Assembly (NCBI GenBank): GCA_025451595.1
Contig: JANWKD010000074.1
Span: 1 to 24,564, forward strand
Direction: 5' to 3'
Source: Candidatus Babeliales bacterium
GTDB lineage: Bacteria; Babelota; Babeliae; Babelales; JANWKD01
Length of the DNA: 24,564 nt
Position numbers and translations under genes: made by a program. This document shows positions 4,501 through 18,839 of this stretch, in pieces (position 1 is the first letter of the stretch; each line of letters opens with the position of its first letter). The notes beneath the pieces were generated by a model. The model was not told the origin of the DNA and made no database searches. It saw nothing but the letters and a program-made list of their open reading frames with translations.

Positions 4501-5889
4501 ATGATTGTATTCAGAAAAGTAGGAAAGAATAGTAAAACAACAGTACAACTGTACGAACACGAAGGTGCGGGTTGGGTTACGCCTTTGAGTAATGGTCCCA
4601 CTTTTGCATTAGGTACCTGGTATCACATTAAAGTCAATTTGATTGACCCGGGAACCACCTTACAAGTCAAAGTGTGGGCAGAACCAGATCAAGAGCCAAA
4701 CTTTTGGCAATCGTTTACCGTCAGTCCGAGTGATCAAAAAACAGTTGGGGTGATTTCATCTGGCGCTTCGATTGAATATCAAATAGTCAATCCAAAACCA
4801 AAGATCGAGCCGATCACAAGTTTACGTCCTGAAAATAAATATCTAAGTCCCGTCGATCAGCAAACCTGGCTTCCATTGCAATTTGAAAAAGAACGTGAAA
4901 AAGCTGCTCAACAACAAATGAAATATCTTCTACAGCCGACGATTGGTAGTTTACAATTAAAACCATACGACACCATGCAAATTGTAAAAGAGAATTATAT
5001 TTACACGACACAAGACACTCAATTAATAGATAAAAATAATAAGTTTATTACTGATTATGTGTTGCCAGCAACGGTCAAATATTATGAGGGATCAAACAAT
5101 GTGCAAGAGGTAACCAATATTGGCCAACAACCACACAACGACTCAAGCATCGTCAGTCTTGTGACCAATAAGGCCTTTACTAAGAATGGTACTGATGTTC
5201 ATTTTGCGGTCACTGATCTTTTTGATACGTATCAAAAAAATCATCCAATACCCGATGATCTGGTAAAAACATTAAAATCTATGCAGCAAGAGTATCAATC
5301 TATGCTCATGAATGTGACATTTGGCATTTGGAAATTACAAGCAACAAGCAGTCAAGATGTTCAAAATCATCAATACATATACACTATGCCATTATATGAC
5401 CAAAATAATAAACTTATTCCAAATGCACTTGATTATCTATTGTTCGCTCGCTGGGAGAATAATTATATTGCTACCGCTCCCGGAAACCCAGGCTATAATT
5501 ATCTTGATGTTTTATCAGATACAACGAGTCAGTATGTAATTATTAGTCTTGTTAGTGGTAACGCCTATTCAAACTCAAGCAAAACCCCTTTACTGACCGG
5601 CTTTGCAGTGAATAACCTATTACAGAATTATCAAAATACCTATGGAAACGTGCGATCAGATTTAGTTTCTCAAATACAAGCTGCCGTTGCTTTATACAAC
5701 CCGCCGACATCAGACAAAACTGCTAACTCTTCAGGACCTGCAACGGGTACCGGAGCTAATAATGTACAAAGCACGACATCTGGTTCCAATGCGAGCGGCA
5801 ACGATCAACCAACTGGCGGTTCTTCCAATGATAGTTTACAAAATCGCAGTGATGATGCGGGTGGTGATAATGTAGATTTTGGCTTTTGA
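1585..5889 (+). CDS. 1434-aa secreted multidomain protein: signal peptide, unknown N-domain, amphipathic/hydrophobic helical region, coiled coil, ConA/LamG-like domain, two tandem ~126-aa repeats, low-complexity tail
   Basis: Uninterrupted 4.3-kb ORF with a TAATG stop/start overlap at 1583-1587. N-terminus MNYIIFLIALNTLILNA is Sec-signal-like. Hydrophobic hairpin at 3727-3840; GTWYHIKVNL...LQVKVW is typical of ConA/LamG-type sandwiches. The CDS is certain; the function is not. Confidence 0.9.
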   Translation: MNYIIFLIALNTLILNAAQQSQKLQEPVNTKVTPTQALAIKKQAATGAQLAAQTLFNPIDPTSKPSKANPYGTVSLNEAAINETFGPQGLNLPTDYIQYIKNFYFYLEYVARLEYAAKLATIASTKGIAMLGTISSGGWHAFVQKMESVAGSWQKLEQELQTIANPAWSDIIGTINATSWQNLAETDFWQSFNNRINAQSLNDSMVWQNYLKIMISNTFVQDTGLLTSIFESEVTLFKYIPNIEVAYYHPEFTVLRNGSEMFRINLVLTDALRTRMAMQSTNWKGIDSINLLAQAQKFQQTDFYKVVTLAEQNPSNSMNQIAQSKFPYDPQIFKKVPLLQEQLTCFAMIKIIQALIMNVYDKTHLDNTMQILSDAKIAKPSPSIFLYTPSDYLYLDDLAHLNDSFEQHASSQQTPSPAQATKLVNYFMNQKPEERIAVASFFGNMWSTVKDTAGKSWDDVKKGVTDAEKLGTDTLDSITNEAEALGFVSLGAFLKVTGLDPQMADKLLKESRDLQNKVYKDLEATGDDLDNLVDDVGNAAIDVNSGIGAAIGQSLSLLDPKLGKAAQGLYTSVFVAVVQSAESMPHLVIAEGLGIVKLQADAVNMIADITADAVTGNYKELGEDIYTGIARMAKDTAVTILNVITLSVKNVINSLMNAVKITAYLTALLTRVWIDMWTAVTFVATGFASIFDPSIDPFSVSQEVQDTLSQHERTINAVITTALLLASIPLTGGTSLAIIGMGAMTLGPQLFSVYGSYQEDEMAKEQLADEKQFISNYQAYVANNKLINIVQQKQWANELQLKYQAQTSNQERALGFYENYLNENINSLKTQFAQALGQRWATLLQPDSHGLALGDVGSIYSVQTNLFNLNPSQGFPLYSMARQSFSQEIAVAPALIWQADSGQPTSAVTQNWFNQKETMILNEPVHNAEIRFKAIYVLNSYHIGLYLGGATIDIADVIKNKMAPINADHLAKMIVFRKVGKNSKTTVQLYEHEGAGWVTPLSNGPTFALGTWYHIKVNLIDPGTTLQVKVWAEPDQEPNFWQSFTVSPSDQKTVGVISSGASIEYQIVNPKPKIEPITSLRPENKYLSPVDQQTWLPLQFEKEREKAAQQQMKYLLQPTIGSLQLKPYDTMQIVKENYIYTTQDTQLIDKNNKFITDYVLPATVKYYEGSNNVQEVTNIGQQPHNDSSIVSLVTNKAFTKNGTDVHFAVTDLFDTYQKNHPIPDDLVKTLKSMQQEYQSMLMNVTFGIWKLQATSSQDVQNHQYIYTMPLYDQNNKLIPNALDYLLFARWENNYIATAPGNPGYNYLDVLSDTTSQYVIISLVSGNAYSNSSKTPLLTGFAVNNLLQNYQNTYGNVRSDLVSQIQAAVALYNPPTSDKTANSSGPATGTGANNVQSTTSGSNASGNDQPTGGSSNDSLQNRSDDAGGDNVDFGF
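4939..5700 (+). repeat. Two tandem protein-level repeats (aa 1119-1244 and 1245-1372) inside the giant ORF
   Basis: Repeat 1: TIGSLQL..YIYT..LIDKNNKFITDYVL..IVSLVT..FAVTDLFDTYQ..DDLV..Y. Repeat 2: TFGIWKL..YIYT..LYDQNNKLI..DYLL..IISLVS..FAVNNLLQNYQ..SDLV..Y. Confidence 0.8.
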
Positions 5890-15364: not shown

Positions 15365-16003
15365 TTATGGTAAGAACGGGATTGCGGTAAATATAGCTCC
15401 TACCGCAGCCGATGCAGTTTCAACAGCAGCTATTGCACCAGTGATACTACCTGCGCTTGTAACGACAGCGGTAGTCGCTAGAGCTGCTTCTGTTGTAAGC
15501 CCCGCTCCCGCAATAGTACCAGCGACTACTGTTACTCCGGTGCTTACCGAAGCTGTTGTGGCAGCAATTGTACCGCCAACTACTCCTCCAGCCAGACCAC
15601 CTGTTGCTACGACAATAGTTCCTGTTGCGGCAACTGCAGTACCATAACATAATGTTTTAGTGAACCAATAAGCGATAGCACCCGATATCGGTCCGCCGCC
15701 TAAACCACGAACTTTTGCTTTAAGGATAAATTGATTATCGCTCATCTTGTTTAATGAAACATAGCCAACCTTTAGGAACTCTTTAAATTGCTTATCATTC
15801 ATTTTACGAAGCATCGGATCAGTAAATGCTTTCTGTACTACATGATGCTTCCCATCTTCTATAACAAGAAACCCATTTTTATGGCGAATTAATGCTGAAC
15901 CTTTCATAACGTTTGGTATAAAAATAGAATTCTCTTTAGACCTCATAGCTAATGATAGCTGGGAAATTAATAATACGGCTAAAAGGTAACGTTTAAAGCC
16001 CAT
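15365..16003 (-). CDS. Secreted precursor: signal peptide, polar pro-domain, RGLGG|G motif, long G/A/T/V-rich hydrophobic C-terminal half (bacteriocin-like)
   Basis: AAAGGT RBS 5 nt before the ATG at 16003 (16009 is a TTG). Signal-like MGFKRYLLAVLLISQLSLA. KAKVRGLGGGP includes 15692-15709; the last ~109 aa are almost uncharged. Confidence 0.75.
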   Translation of the reverse strand: MGFKRYLLAVLLISQLSLAMRSKENSIFIPNVMKGSALIRHKNGFLVIEDGKHHVVQKAFTDPMLRKMNDKQFKEFLKVGYVSLNKMSDNQFILKAKVRGLGGGPISGAIAYWFTKTLCYGTAVAATGTIVVATGGLAGGVVGGTIAATTASVSTGVTVVAGTIAGAGLTTEAALATTAVVTSAGSITGAIAAVETASAAVGAIFTAIPFLP

Positions 16004-16108
16004 ATGCAACCTTTCGATATGCCATTGATCGAATTATATAATTTTAAATAATTGGTTGTTTCCGTCTGGAAAGATTTTATATTTTAAGACTTAGTAAACA
16101 AGGATATA

Positions 16109-16192: not shown

Positions 16193-17425
16193 ATGAGCAA
16201 AATCATTTCACTTCCCTTAATTTTTCTTTTCTTTTTTCATTCTATTCATCCGCACGGTTTTTGCGCAGGCACACAAATTCAAACGGCGCAAGGCTATGCA
16301 AATATCGAGAATCAATCGATTGGCACGCACGTCCAAAGCTTGAACAGTGCAACACAATATTGTTTGCAGCCCGTTACGCACATTACCAAAACAAAAGCAA
16401 ATTGTTTTGTACGAATATGGTTTAATGATGAGTATCTCGATACGTCGCCTGACCAACTGTTTTATTGTCCTCATGAAGAAAAATGGATTCCTGCTCAACA
16501 GTTAGCTTCGCAGTCTATTCTTACTAAAAATATCTCTCAAGATTTGATTATTAATAACATTGAGATTATTCATCAAGACGCAGAATTTTATAGTATCACG
16601 GTAGCCAATGATCACACGTTCTTTGTCACCGAGCAACAGATCCTCACTCATAATATTCTACCAATTGTTATTGGTTTTTCTTTTGCCTTTGGTGGTGGCA
16701 TTGAATTTTTGGGTGCAACCATTGGCATAAGCACATTAGGCTTATTGCTTGGGTTCAAGTTTTATAACGATAGATCAAAGAAAGAGCTGCAATTCCAGCG
16801 TTTAGAAAATTCACCAACTATTCCAACGATTAATGCAAATACCTCTATCGTTGCTATTGAACCACGAAAATCTGGATGTGGCAGTACGCAGCCCGCAACC
16901 ATTGAAGATCATATTCTTATCGCACCCATACAAAAACCTAAGGAGCCAAATCGCGGTTGCTATAACCCTGTGCCAGTACCGGAACGCAAGCCAGGATGCG
17001 GTGGCAGCCTGCAACAAAAAACTGATGATTTTATCTTACAACAAGAGACAACGAGTCAAAAACCTGGCCGATTTGTCGTAACACCAGAAAATGTTAAAGG
17101 CGAAATATCTTCTGACATTAAAACAGGAATTAAGCTAAGCAATTCTGCGATAGCTACTCTCGATAAGATAAATAAAAAAGTTGGTCTTAAAGGAACCATT
17201 ACCAATAAAATTGCTACACAAGCAGCTAAAGAATTAGGTTTTGAAAAAATAGGAGAAATGTCCCGTGGTCGTGCGATATTTAGAAAAGGCAATAAATATA
17301 TTTCAGCAGACAAATATAGACATAATGGTGGATTTTGGAATATGGCTAACTCTGTAGATGAAATAATGACAAAACCGGGAAGATTAGGAACTTATGATAT
17401 ATTTCTTAACAAAATAGGTGATTAA
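16193..17425 (+). CDS. Polymorphic toxin: signal peptide, Hint domain, hydrophobic hairpin, linker, C-terminal Ntox21-type (CdiA-CT ECL/EC16-like) RNase domain
   Basis: Hint: GFCAGTQIQTAQGY.NIE..IG..V.S (16256-) to YSITVANDHTFFV..ILTHN (-16654). C-terminus AAKELGFEKI..AIFRKGNKYISADKYRHNGGFW..RLGTYDIFLNKIGD matches the recalled Ntox21 motifs [DS]xDxxxH and RxG[ST]. Confidence 0.88.
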   Translation: MSKIISLPLIFLFFFHSIHPHGFCAGTQIQTAQGYANIENQSIGTHVQSLNSATQYCLQPVTHITKTKANCFVRIWFNDEYLDTSPDQLFYCPHEEKWIPAQQLASQSILTKNISQDLIINNIEIIHQDAEFYSITVANDHTFFVTEQQILTHNILPIVIGFSFAFGGGIEFLGATIGISTLGLLLGFKFYNDRSKKELQFQRLENSPTIPTINANTSIVAIEPRKSGCGSTQPATIEDHILIAPIQKPKEPNRGCYNPVPVPERKPGCGGSLQQKTDDFILQQETTSQKPGRFVVTPENVKGEISSDIKTGIKLSNSAIATLDKINKKVGLKGTITNKIATQAAKELGFEKIGEMSRGRAIFRKGNKYISADKYRHNGGFWNMANSVDEIMTKPGRLGTYDIFLNKIGD

Positions 17426-17944
17426 ATGTTTTGTTGGCGCATTACAAAGTATGATCCAAAAAATCGAAACGAACTCGGCTACTATTTAAAAGACGAATGG
17501 ACTGAATACGGAGATATTGGCAGATCATTTGATGGAAAAATTTTTACTTATGAAGAATATGTAATAGTTGAAGATGCTTATATTCAAGCCGTTCTATTAT
17601 TTATGGATTGTTTAGAGATTGATTCTTTAAAAGTTATATCTCTCGAAGATACGCATGGAAAAAATCCTGAAAGCATATCCGTTGAGAGTATAAAAATAAA
17701 AAATAATGAATATTATAAAAAAGAAATGATAATTTTTATTATTAAGTCTATCTTACGGTATAAATTATGGTGCAAGCTTGAATCAGAAAATATGCGAGTA
17801 GATTTTGGCTATGATTATTATATGGGCTTAGCTTGTTCAAAATTATGTATGTCAACAATAAAAAAAATAGAAAATGAACTTGGATTGTTTGTTGAAAAAA
17901 TAGGATGTGAAATTATTTTCGATGACGATGAAGATGATGATTAA
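17426..17944 (+). CDS. Probable cognate immunity protein
   Basis: Starts at the base directly after the toxin stop. Small, acidic, no signal peptide, visibly AT-rich. Pattern WRITKYDP..G.Y..DEWT..DIG..F..T..EY..E.AY..A..F and W.KLES..DFGYDYYM recalls proteins found downstream of nuclease toxins. Confidence 0.75.
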   Translation: MFCWRITKYDPKNRNELGYYLKDEWTEYGDIGRSFDGKIFTYEEYVIVEDAYIQAVLLFMDCLEIDSLKVISLEDTHGKNPESISVESIKIKNNEYYKKEMIIFIIKSILRYKLWCKLESENMRVDFGYDYYMGLACSKLCMSTIKKIENELGLFVEKIGCEIIFDDDEDDD

Positions 17945-17946
17945 TA

Positions 17947-17994
17947 ATGTTTTGTTGGCGCATTAGCAAGCATTATTCAAAATATCGAAATGAC
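17947..17994 (+). pseudogene. Degraded 5' fragment of a second immunity gene copy
   Basis: 40 of 48 nt identical to 17426-17473, with the first 19 nt identical; MFCWRISKHYSKYRND vs MFCWRITKYDPKNRNE. Similarity then stops and the frame runs antisense into the 18018 gene. Confidence 0.75.
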
Positions 17995-18017
17995 CAAGAC
18001 ATTCATACAAAAATAAC

Positions 18018-18839
18018 TTATGCTTTCTGCTTTAATTTTTCAAGCTTTTCAATACGTGCAGATAATAAATTAAGTTCTTCTTGGGAACGAAATACATCTT
18101 GTTCCATTAAGGATTCAAGTTCAATTCGTAACTTTTCAAAAAAATCAATTAAACTTTTACTATGATTATAATTATGACTAGCATACCAACTAGAGGATTG
18201 ATAGTCAGGAGAGTTCTCGGCGAGTTCTCGATCGAGCTTAAGTCCAGGGTCATCTAATGTTGGTCCTGAATTTGATTTCCAAATAGATAAAGGAAGATCA
18301 ATAATAATTCTTTTTGTCAATAAAGTTGCTAGGCTAAGCATGCAAGAAAGAGAAAATCTTTTGGCTAAATTGTCTGTTATATTGCCATTTGATTGTAAAC
18401 AATAGTGAACGCTACTAACTAATATTATATTTAAAATCGAATCAAACCATGTGTTATTACTGGAAAATTTCTTATTGCAAAACTGTTTCCATTTAGAAAC
18501 CAACACAAACGCCAAGCAGGCTCTTTTTTGACCAATTGTTAATGAATTAAAAAAATCTTCATTGATAAAGTAATACTCACACCCGTTTGCCCAATAACTC
18601 ACCAATGGCCAGTCCTGATTCCCACTGTGAAGTTTTTTTATTTTAATATTGTGGTTTTGAACACGCCACTTGTTAATGCACTCGTTAATGAGCTGTTCAT
18701 TTTCAGGCGAAAAAGATTCGCCTTCAAAATCTTCCAATTGTAAAACAAATTTATTCTCATTTTGAATCGAACAAATTTCAGCAGAAATTACATTATTAAA
18801 AGCAAATATTATTGCTAAACTCAGTATTAAATTTTTCAT
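18018..18839 (-). CDS. Secreted/membrane M48 (HtpX/Ste24)-like protein lacking HExxH (paralog B)
   Basis: Signal-like N-terminus; YFINEDFFNSLTIGQKRACLAFVL; two hydrophobic segments; LKLDRELAE; C-terminal ARIEKLEKL. Paralogous to 18862-19632. Confidence 0.7.
   Translation of the reverse strand: MKNLILSLAIIFAFNNVISAEICSIQNENKFVLQLEDFEGESFSPENEQLINECINKWRVQNHNIKIKKLHSGNQDWPLVSYWANGCEYYFINEDFFNSLTIGQKRACLAFVLVSKWKQFCNKKFSSNNTWFDSILNIILVSSVHYCLQSNGNITDNLAKRFSLSCMLSLATLLTKRIIIDLPLSIWKSNSGPTLDDPGLKLDRELAENSPDYQSSSWYASHNYNHSKSLIDFFEKLRIELESLMEQDVFRSQEELNLLSARIEKLEKLKQKA

Follow-up and report, generated by a model that had tools for sequence, protein, structure and literature searches.

A probable polymorphic toxin-immunity gene pair from a Hint-capped, Sec-dependent family in a bacterium of intracellular appearance

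Polymorphic toxins are usually studied on large machines, such as CdiA filaments, Rhs/T6SS and LXG/T7SS. The CdiA-CT(ECL)-type Ntox21 rRNase cleaves 16S rRNA between A1493 and G1494, and cleavage by Asn cyclisation is established chemistry for inteins and bacterial intein-like (BIL) domains. In T6SS effectors of the Tse6/prePAAR class, marginally hydrophobic segments linked to the toxin have been proposed to insert into the target inner membrane and carry the toxin across. The available text of Zhang et al. (2012, Biol Direct, PMC3482391) lists signal peptide + HINT + toxin and Ntox21 + HINT among the architectures of polymorphic toxins, with HINT processing and T2SS export for Ntox21. MafB toxins of pathogenic Neisseria carry an optional BIL domain that precedes the tip, and their outer-membrane route is unknown (Jamet et al. 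2015, PMC4287609).

We analysed a 24,564-nucleotide stretch of DNA (the window) from a Candidatus Babeliales bacterium (contig JANWKD010000074.1, assembly GCA_025451595.1). It contains a toxin gene with a candidate immunity gene behind it, made up of the following features:

16193-17425, + strand: toxin gene, an ORF of 410 aa
16193-16255, + strand: signal-type N-terminus of the toxin (residues 1-21), read from the sequence as MSK, a 12-residue hydrophobic core and HSIHPH
16256-16654, + strand: Hint domain of the PT-HINT/bacterial intein-like type (residues 22-154; PF07591, TIGR01443, 2LWY)
16655-16765, + strand: hydrophobic segment rich in Gly (residues 155-191), which begins immediately behind the predicted scissile Asn154/Ile155 bond
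16766-17140, + strand: disordered linker (residues 192-316; pLDDT 34-47) with two Cys-bearing repeats
17141-17425, + strand: toxin tip (residues 317-410), two helices followed by Ntox21 (BECR-fold, CdiA-CT ECL-type RNase) at residues 344-410
17426-17944, + strand: candidate cognate immunity gene, an ORF of 172 aa, no signal peptide, its start abutting the toxin stop
17947-18000, + strand: what is left of a second immunity gene, which over its first ~49 nt matches the start of 17426-17944 (MFCWRI..) with 84% identity

We consider it likely that the two genes together are a polymorphic toxin-immunity cassette, that they belong to a Sec-dependent, Hint-capped family abundant in the source bacterium's phylum, most likely Dependentiae/Babeliales, and that the released tip is delivered to competitors.

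The toxin ORF was intact across its 410 codons, with no frameshift or internal stop, and its TAA was followed directly by the ATG of the downstream gene, leaving zero gap. Pfam analysis matched PT-HINT (PF07591) to residues 29-154 at 37.8 bits (cut-off 27.7) and Ntox21 (PF15526) to residues 344-410 at 69.4 bits (E 3.5e-19; cut-off 25), and the TIGR01443 model intein_Cterm matched residues 131-154. The domain order was a signal-type N-terminus, PT-HINT (22-154), the 37-aa Gly-rich hydrophobic segment, the disordered Cys-bearing linker and the Ntox21 tip. Four Pfam families matched the protein at E ≤ 1, every one of them Hint or Ntox21, and none of the RHS, FHA, TPS, PAAR, LXG and DUF1020 models of Pfam/NCBIfam did so, in agreement with the preliminary description, which had noted that the toxin carries no RHS/CdiA/LXG stalk. 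A promoter and terminator scan gave a signal no higher than that of shuffled controls. Residues 6-16 were helical in the AlphaFold model. It had also been proposed that the Hint domain starts at the signal cleavage site; this was clear across the family, most members of which close the signal region with AxA/(E)GF, and less clear for the window copy, in which the signal-peptidase site is non-canonical (..FFFHSIHPH/GF; slashes mark the cut).

The Hint domain was modelled with a pLDDT of 95-98 (AlphaFold). Its best match among solved structures was the BIL domain of PDB 2LWY (E 5e-5, residues 22-154), and the ESM Atlas returned generic Hint clusters only, with scores of 0.85 or lower. The domain opens with G22-F-C-A-G-T and closes with T152-H153-N154 followed by I155, so that the replacement of Cys1 by Gly and the THN-Ile junction described previously were both found. 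Gly22 occupies the intein Cys1 position, Gln88 occupies the block-B His position, where it aligns to the His of 2LWY, and the block-F His141 is kept. A search of 1.84 billion representatives gave 7422 family matches at E ≤ 1e-3, of which about 1500 reached E ≤ 1e-10 and 51 reached E ≤ 1e-30, and residue columns were counted in 119 members. The terminal His-Asn was invariant (119/119), the block-F His was kept in 116/119, and PT-HINT was matched by 115/119. Position 1 was Gly in 102/119 members, Ser in 9 and Ala in 5, and the block-B (TxxH) position was Gln in 100/119 and His in 19/119. The residue following His-Asn was Phe, Ile, Ala or Val, with Cys, Ser and Thr almost absent; canonical tandem Hints recovered by the same family search begin with ..GQCFIAGT. 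Because His-Asn is invariant, position 1 is Gly and block B carries Gln, the residue pattern fits a Hint domain that has kept the chemistry for the C-terminal cut only, as had been suggested for the window copy. The family would also provide a ready-made collection of Hint domains that are adapted to cleave at the C-terminal end only.

The segment behind the predicted cut has the conserved motif HN-[FI]-x-P-x3-G-x2-[WF]-x-F-G-G-x-I-E-F-x-G-x3-G-x4-G-x3-G, in which P157 is conserved in 104/119 members, G167 in 108/119, G183 in 107/119 and a mid-segment Glu in 57/119. It is only marginally hydrophobic. The best 19-mer of the window copy had a dG of +2.4 kcal/mol, the family median was +3.0, and a 19-mer with dG below 0 was found in 1/119 members; true transmembrane helices of the same genome lie between -4 and +1 kcal/mol. 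This difference fits passage of the segment through Sec, and less a stop-transfer anchor. AlphaFold2 modelled residues 155-174 as coil (pLDDT about 50) and residues 175-205 as a single helix. Where the preliminary description saw a 37-aa hydrophobic hairpin, the hydrophobic stretch was therefore retained (155-191; 16655-16765) and the hairpin was not, given the one helix and the marginal hydrophobicity. A two-helix transmembrane hairpin was rejected as a candidate, its first half being 12-15 residues long, with no helix in the model and a positive dG; a glycine-zipper Pfam family was also rejected (no match at E ≤ 1).

A K/R patch follows the segment at residues 189-203, with 3.4 K+R against 1.5 D+E in 15 aa. 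This patch and the single helix 175-205 fit an N-out/C-in anchor equally well, a topology that would keep the toxin in the producer's cytoplasm, and this counts against delivery to competitors. The protein would then be an unreleased membrane anchor with a periplasmic Hint and a cytoplasmic tip held with the immunity protein, working as a toxin-antitoxin, addiction or stress-triggered module, or delivered only by vesicles or lysis. Such an anchor is consistent with the lack of a modelled helix at 155-174, with a positive patch after the segment and an acidic residue before it, which fits the positive-inside rule, and with an immunity protein that has no signal peptide and is encoded directly after the toxin stop codon. 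However, the dG values given above are poor for an anchor, the invariant His-Asn of the junction would apparently be purposeless without release, and a scaffold of the secretion type whose tips can be exchanged is what delivered toxins typically have. We regard the anchor as quite improbable.

The linker carries its repeats at residues 225-243 (RKSGCGS..EDHILI) and 254-285 (RGCYNPVPVPERKPGCGG..DDFILQQE). Comparison with other family members placed a tip-swap junction at about residue 288: similarity to members P0006 and P0007 stops at 279-288, and the toxin shares 51% identity with P0006 across residues 9-288 but diverges beyond. The tip is 54% identical to that of member P0025, whose linker differs, and the linker alone also occurs in a non-Hint protein on another contig (C11). 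The GC content was 0.316 for the tip vs 0.377 for the scaffold.

By its domain match the tip is an Ntox21 domain, of the ColE3-like 16S rRNase type, and we consider this assignment sound; phmmer also aligned the tip to residues 161-235 of 4NTQ_A (E 0.033). In CdiA-CT(ECL), the active site consists of D203, D205, H207 and K214 according to the available text of PMC9086364. The corresponding positions in the window copy are D373, Y375, H377 and N383, so that 2/4 match; Y375 (TAT) takes the D205 position and N383 (AAT) that of K214. In the 16 other Ntox21 tips of the family, the Lys is invariant and the second Asp is present in 13 and replaced by Thr in 2. The rRNase activity of the window copy is uncertain because of these two changes, and it may be altered or weakened. 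The preliminary description of the tip as an Ntox21 rRNase is thus supported for the family assignment, and less so for the function of this copy. Together with the non-canonical signal-peptidase site, the Y375 and N383 substitutions weigh against our main reading.

The window copy could be a weakened or dead relic of an active family, kept for the use of its immunity gene against the toxins of relatives. Both changed positions belong to the characterised active site, in the available text of PMC9086364, and differ from what the sibling tips carry. Against a relic, the reading frame is intact, D373 and H377 are kept, the new basic residues K374 and R376 that flank the site could compensate, and the immunity gene is intact and conserved. 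On balance this seems rather unlikely.

The downstream gene (GC 0.279) was proposed as the partner of the toxin, and genomic comparison bore this out. In nearly all of 30 family loci, the spacing between the toxin and the ORF behind it was -13 to +27 nt. Pairwise comparison of loci gave 41 pairs alike in both tip and downstream ORF, 7 alike in the tip only, 3 in the downstream ORF only and 300 in neither, counts that are not phylogenetically independent. Because tip and downstream gene co-vary, we count 17426-17944 as the candidate cognate immunity gene. Its 172-aa product shares 44% identity with the ORF that follows another Ntox21-tipped member. It has 36 homologues, none with a Pfam domain; four times, a pair of these report an equal longest-contig size. 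Searches of Pfam, NCBIfam, PADLOC and PDB sequences gave no match to the protein, nor did sequence comparison with Imm41, Imm-Barstar and CdiI(ECL). Its structure was modelled confidently (pLDDT 93), without a clear PDB relative: Foldseek returned nothing at E ≤ 0.001, and with VIA-align the best Z was 6.4 (generic ferredoxin-like folds), a CdiI (6d7y_B) scoring a Z of 5.4, within noise. In the remnant at 17947-18000, similarity to the immunity gene stops at the end of the convergent gene 18018-18839.

The common plan was recognised in about 140 of the best 150 representatives, which are proteins of ~300 aa. The scaffold was present in 85/261 species genomes of the phylum, with up to 8 copies per genome. 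Tips of the 119 members were Ntox37 (23), Ntox21 (17), ColE3-type 'Cytotoxic' (10), Ntox33 (1) and DUF4258 (1), and about 67/119 tips had no Pfam family. A look-up of the same genome for the scaffold with other tips, as had been advised, found one: a paralogue on contig C26 that carries an Ntox37 tip and is accompanied by two small ORFs in tandem. A locus search of genome contigs with a five-member alignment gave one locus, whose genome (G241 = G261) also belongs to this phylum. Viral contigs gave no family locus, which is weak evidence since the search used two peptide patterns only, and 30 loci had no accessory or receptor gene in common within flanks of only 1.5 kb, a point against delivery that is limited by this short range. 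The genome encodes an Omp85 protein, two secretins and two T2SS-E/PilB-type ATPases, a candidate export route. One scaffold with alternative tips and a co-varying downstream gene is, at the level of sequence, a polymorphic toxin-immunity system. The family is apparently an undescribed, large branch of this known type of bacterial weapon, and a search of the available literature for Dependentiae together with 'polymorphic toxin' or 'Hint domain' found no paper.

The source organism looks obligately intracellular, of the protist-parasite type, because its genome encodes two TLC ATP/ADP translocases and genomes are small in the phylum (0.8-2.1 Mb in 261 species of one order); an intracellular lifestyle had been suspected from the start. 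Ankyrin proteins are encoded within the window. ColE3 and Ntox21 RNases target the decoding centre, a site generally regarded as universally conserved. With such a target and such a lifestyle, the ankyrin proteins included, the toxin could be a host-directed effector, whose fragment crosses the protist vacuole membrane and cuts cytosolic or mitochondrial small-subunit rRNA while the downstream protein only protects the producer; the mid-segment Glu also recalls hairpins that insert on a pH trigger. However, nearly every copy is accompanied by an immunity gene that varies along with the tip and occurs in duplicate or as a remnant, which is the signature of an interbacterial arms race. In the available text of Zhang et al. 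(2012, PMC3482391), host-directed toxins of intracellular bacteria mostly have no immunity genes, and the toxin-antidote modules of obligate intracellular Rickettsia have been read as interbacterial (bioRxiv 10.1101/2022.02.21.481368). A host-directed effector is, in our view, distinctly unlikely. A bacterial target appears more likely than the host, because the family bears the interbacterial marks of a cognate, co-varying and tandemly duplicated immunity gene; of the two targets named initially, co-infecting bacteria were thus favoured over mitochondrial ribosomes.

Collectively, we propose the following sequence of events for delivery to competitors. The signal sequence would carry the precursor across the inner membrane. 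The Hint domain, then at the mature N-terminus, would cut the Asn154/Ile155 bond by Asn cyclisation, as its residue pattern suggests. The cut would expose a new Gly-rich, marginally hydrophobic N-terminus (155-191), followed by the basic patch, the Cys-bearing linker and the RNase tip. By analogy with fusion-peptide/glycine-zipper segments and with the transmembrane segments found in T6SS effectors such as Tse6, this segment would act as a delivery module, which probably engages a membrane and helps the tip into a competing bacterium's cytoplasm. The cytoplasmic 172-aa protein would protect the producer and its kin by neutralising the tip, as gene coupling and co-variation suggest. A bolder and doubtful possibility is that the Gly-rich segment is a self-contained membrane-entry device, Asn cyclisation unmasking a fusion-peptide-like N-terminus that carries RNase tips across the target membrane, that of a rival bacterium or of the host vacuole, without an injection machine. 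If true, it would explain why up to eight copies are kept in obligate intracellular genomes of ~1 Mb.

The family shrinks the polymorphic toxin to about 300-400 residues: a signal peptide, a C-terminal-cleavage Hint, a greasy module and a swappable tip. If the greasy module does mediate entry, this would be a minimal, portable toxin-delivery unit, and the consistent immunity genes would indicate intracellular parasites fighting each other inside shared hosts. The Hint domain shares the conserved blocks F and G (..H-x-F-x-V....L-x-H-N) with the Clostridium thermocellum BIL domain (2LWY). In contrast to this BIL domain and to inteins, it has no N-terminal nucleophile; thioester formation, splicing and ligation are therefore impossible, leaving only Asn cyclisation. 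The CdiA-CT of Enterobacter cloacae ATCC 13047 (4NTQ; Beck et al. 2014, as given in the available text of PMC9086364) belongs to the same Pfam family, Ntox21, and the equivalents of its D203 and H207 are kept, whereas D205 and K214 of this CdiA-CT/CdiI(ECL) pair are replaced as described above and CdiB/CdiA filament delivery is absent.

Another class of similar design is that of the Sec/'T2SS' PT-HINT toxins, as presented in the available text of Zhang et al. (PMC3482391). As in the window, their sole trafficking signal is a signal peptide, PT-HINT precedes a C-terminal toxin that can be swapped, and directly downstream lies the immunity gene. The window toxin differs in that the Hint domain comes first in the mature protein, with no stalk, repeats, N-extein, Cys1 or block-B His, and in the conserved Gly-rich hydrophobic module and linker that separate the Hint from the tip; no passage on such a module was found in that text, and the phylum is absent from the phyla listed there. 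MafB/MafI class 1 of pathogenic Neisseria are likewise small Sec-dependent polymorphic toxins, with a signal peptide, a conserved N-terminal part, a variable RNase-type tip, an adjacent immunity gene and no T5SS/T6SS signature (PMC4287609). Unlike MafB, the window toxin gave no DUF1020 match (PF06255; E ≤ 1), and the flanks examined contain no partner resembling mafA; MafB has its BIL domain between DUF1020 and the tip rather than N-terminally, with no hydrophobic module behind this domain. In comparison with the Tse6/prePAAR class, the window has no PAAR, VgrG or Eag chaperone, and its hydrophobic segment would be exposed by predicted self-cleavage after Sec export.

The candidate toxin gene lies on contig C74 of a genome bin of 965 kb in 107 contigs (65% complete). 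The features of the toxin and of its partner were as follows.

16193-17425, + strand, toxin ORF of 410 aa, ending in TAA
toxin residues from G22, start of the Hint, G22-F-C-A-G-T
toxin residues 29-154, PT-HINT (Pfam, 37.8 bits against a cut-off of 27.7)
toxin residues 131-154, intein C-terminal splicing motif (NCBIfam)
T152-H153-N154, end of the Hint, with Ile155 as the +1 residue
toxin residues 155-191 (16655-16765, + strand), hydrophobic stretch of 37 residues
toxin residues 344-410, Ntox21 (Pfam, 69.4 bits against a cut-off of 25)
17426-17944, + strand, downstream partner ORF of 172 aa, its first base directly after the toxin TAA

The Hint motifs quoted in the preliminary description (GFCAGT start, THN end, Ile at +1, 37-residue stretch) were all found. 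No further Pfam or NCBIfam domain was matched at E<=1, indicating that the toxin has no RHS, FHA/TPS, PAAR, LXG or DUF1020 part and bearing out the earlier statement that an RHS/CdiA/LXG stalk is absent. The best solved relative of the Hint was the bacterial intein-like domain 2LWY (E 5e-5, residues 22-154); that of residues 337-410 was CdiA-CT of Enterobacter cloacae (4NTQ_A, 161-235).

A scaffold profile built from toxin residues 1-215 and a same-genome paralogue matched 7422 of 1.84 billion representative proteins at E<=1e-3, of which 51 passed E<=1e-30. Of the top 150 matches, about 140, roughly 200-470 aa in size, had the same plan: a signal-type N-terminus, a Hint opening (E)GFxAGTLVKTP and closing His-Asn, then a hydrophobic stretch rich in Gly, of median length 34 aa. 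This stretch is followed by a basic patch (3.4 K+R against 1.5 D+E per next 15 aa) and the variable C-terminal part has a median of about 130 aa. The Hint start at the predicted signal cleavage site, proposed earlier for the window copy, is clear in most members (cleavage between ..AxA and (E)GF); in the window copy itself the putative site is non-canonical (..FFFHSIHPH ahead of GF). Alignment of 119 family members gave the following counts.

H153 and N154: invariant, 119/119
H141 (block F): His in 116/119
Hint position 1: Gly in 102/119, Ser in 9, Ala in 5
block-B His position: Gln in 100/119
residue +1 after His-Asn: Phe in 70, Ile in 16, Ala in 12, Val in 7, Cys in 3

Both residues on which the N-terminal acyl shift depends have therefore been lost in the family, and everything required for Asn cyclisation has been retained. 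Large multi-Hint proteins recovered by the same search have Hints opening ..CFIAGT and polar residues behind HN, indicating that the scaffold family is a distinct branch.

The AlphaFold2 model of the toxin was confident for the Hint (pLDDT 95-98), showed residues 155-174 as low-confidence coil and 175-205 as one helix, and left linker 208-316 disordered. The membrane hairpin described earlier was not recovered: there is only this one helix, and the first hydrophobic half has just 12-15 residues ahead of GGG. On the Hessa 2005 scale, the best 19-mer of the segment scored +2.4 kcal/mol (family median +3.0), and only 1/119 members scored below 0; the TLC carriers of the same genome have transmembrane helices scoring -4 to +1. 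The segment, rich in Gly, Ser and Thr, is thus marginally hydrophobic and closer in character to a fusion peptide or glycine zipper than to a stop-transfer anchor, which is compatible with Sec export. A single N-out/C-in span keeping the tip in the cytoplasm of the producer would also fit the basic patch directly behind the segment and an acidic residue ahead of helix 175-205. A divergent neighbour had a stretch of comparable hydrophobicity and no Pfam match.

15365-16009, - strand, signal peptide, polar domain, then some 109 Gly/Ala/Thr/Val residues with hardly any charge; best 19-mer dG +2.9, marginal like the module of the toxin

The tips of the 119 members were assigned with Pfam.

Ntox37: 23 members
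Ntox21: 17 members
ColE3-type 'Cytotoxic': 10 members
Ntox33: 1 member
DUF4258: 1 member
no Pfam assignment: about 67 members

The window toxin was 51% identical to family member P0006 over residues 9-288 and 43% identical to P0007 over residues 3-279, the tips then diverging; conversely, its tip and that of P0025, 54% identical, stand on different linkers. The swap point lies at about residue 288, behind the motif ..DDFILQQE. The low GC of the tip (0.316) and downstream gene (0.279), against 0.377 for the Hint, 0.407 for the linker and a genome mean of 0.352, fits a recently swapped tip-immunity cassette (17141-17944). At the positions of the CdiA-CT(ECL) active site (D203, D205, H207, K214; PMC9086364), the window tip has D373, Y375, H377 and N383, with K374 and R376 as new basic residues beside it. 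The equivalent of K214 is invariant in the 16/16 other family Ntox21 tips, and the second Asp is Asp in 13 and Thr in 2 of these 16. Given Y375 and N383, the activity of the window tip is uncertain.

In 30 loci taken from further genomes of the phylum, nearly all family members had a same-strand ORF behind them at -13 to +27 nt. Of 351 locus pairs, which are not phylogenetically independent, 41 were alike in tip as well as downstream ORF, 7 in the tip alone, 3 in the downstream ORF alone and 300 in neither. Judged by sequence, the family is polymorphic and paired with co-varying putative immunity genes. The 172-aa partner shared 44% identity with the ORF that follows a different Ntox21-tipped member, and its 36 homologues, each about 170 aa long, had no Pfam domain. 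Four pairs of these homologues may lie together, judging by the equal length of the longest contig given for both. Its AlphaFold model was confident (pLDDT 93, pTM 0.89) and had no clear relative among solved structures. What looks like a truncated second copy follows.

17947-18000, directly after the stop of 17426-17944, putative immunity gene remnant, 41/49 nt repeating the 5' end of that gene (MFCWRI..)

The likeness is lost at the end of the convergent gene 18018-18839. Separately, locus L016 (G012:C4:105131-108706, in another genome) carries two family members in tandem, each with its own downstream ORF of ~205 aa (tips 76% and partners 64% identical), an example of recent cassette duplication.

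Two further loci of the window's genome (G000) were related to the toxin.

G000:C26, L001:1324-2247, + strand, toxin paralogue sharing the signal sequence, Hint and Gly-rich module; Ntox37 tip
L001:2263-2562 and 2572-2931, two small paralogous ORFs behind it (99 and 119 aa)
G000:C11, L035:2158-3888, - strand, 576 aa, signal-type N-terminus, mid-protein hydrophobic pair
L035:1733-2149, - strand, ORF of 138 aa behind it

The C26 paralogue, whose junction reads ..VHN followed by FVPVVIGISFLFGSGAIEFAGATIG.., answers the earlier suggestion to look for the same scaffold with a different tip; the two small ORFs are probably immunity genes. The C11 protein, without Hint or Pfam match and with an unassigned tip, shares with the toxin no more than the Cys-bearing repeats of the linker (RGC[YF]NPVP..KPGCGG; 38% identity to residues 192-301), and may be a third polymorphic toxin, the shared linker serving as a recombination joint.

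Among 261 species genomes of the phylum (all one order, 0.8-2.1 Mb), the scaffold was found at E<=1e-10 in 85, representing 55/145 genera and 14/20 other families sampled; the copy number reached 8 in a genome, and none was found in the 4 further genomes of the family to which the window belongs. The following genes bear on lifestyle.

G000:C47:5510-8378, - strand, pair of TLC ATP/ADP translocase genes in tandem, a sign of energy parasitism
G000:C71:485-955 and 5334-5813, - strand, two secretin genes, open frames 855 and 875 aa long, about 5 kb apart

The TLC family was absent from all 14 control genomes. The genome also encodes Omp85 and two T2SS-E/PilB-type (PilB/GspE-type) ATPases, and ankyrin-repeat genes are present in the window. 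Together with the small genomes of the phylum, these genes fit an obligately intracellular, diderm energy parasite, in agreement with the intracellular, rather than free-living, source supposed earlier. They are also consistent with the phylum being Dependentiae. The secretins and the two ATPases encoded elsewhere offer a possible route over the outer membrane for Sec-exported proteins.

Collectively, domain order, residue pattern, swappable tips and a coupled, co-varying downstream gene are established at the level of gene sequence. By established intein and BIL chemistry, Asn154 cyclisation would cleave the protein C-terminally without an N-terminal step, yielding a fragment that opens with the conserved hydrophobic motif. 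By analogy, this fragment could engage a membrane and let the RNase tip enter a target cell. The immunity-gene pattern makes other bacteria in a shared host cell the most likely target, ahead of host targets such as the mitochondrial ribosomes considered in the preliminary description. Zhang et al. 2012 (PMC3482391) describe host-directed toxins of intracellular bacteria as mostly lacking immunity genes, and the obligate intracellular Rickettsia provides a precedent for interbacterial toxin-antidote modules (bioRxiv 10.1101/2022.02.21.481368).

None of the papers searched connects Dependentiae to polymorphic toxins or to Hint domains. The architecture class is already known: both the 'signal peptide + HINT + toxin' class and the Ntox21 + HINT pairing are catalogued by Zhang et al. 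2012 (PMC3482391). The closest studied case is Neisseria MafB class 1, with a signal peptide, DUF1020, an optional BIL, a variable tip and MafI, whose route across the outer membrane is reported as unknown (PMC4287609). By contrast, the window family has its Hint as an N-terminal cap, has lost Cys1 and the block-B His as a family, carries a conserved hydrophobic module behind the scissile bond and a Cys-repeat linker, and belongs to a different phylum.
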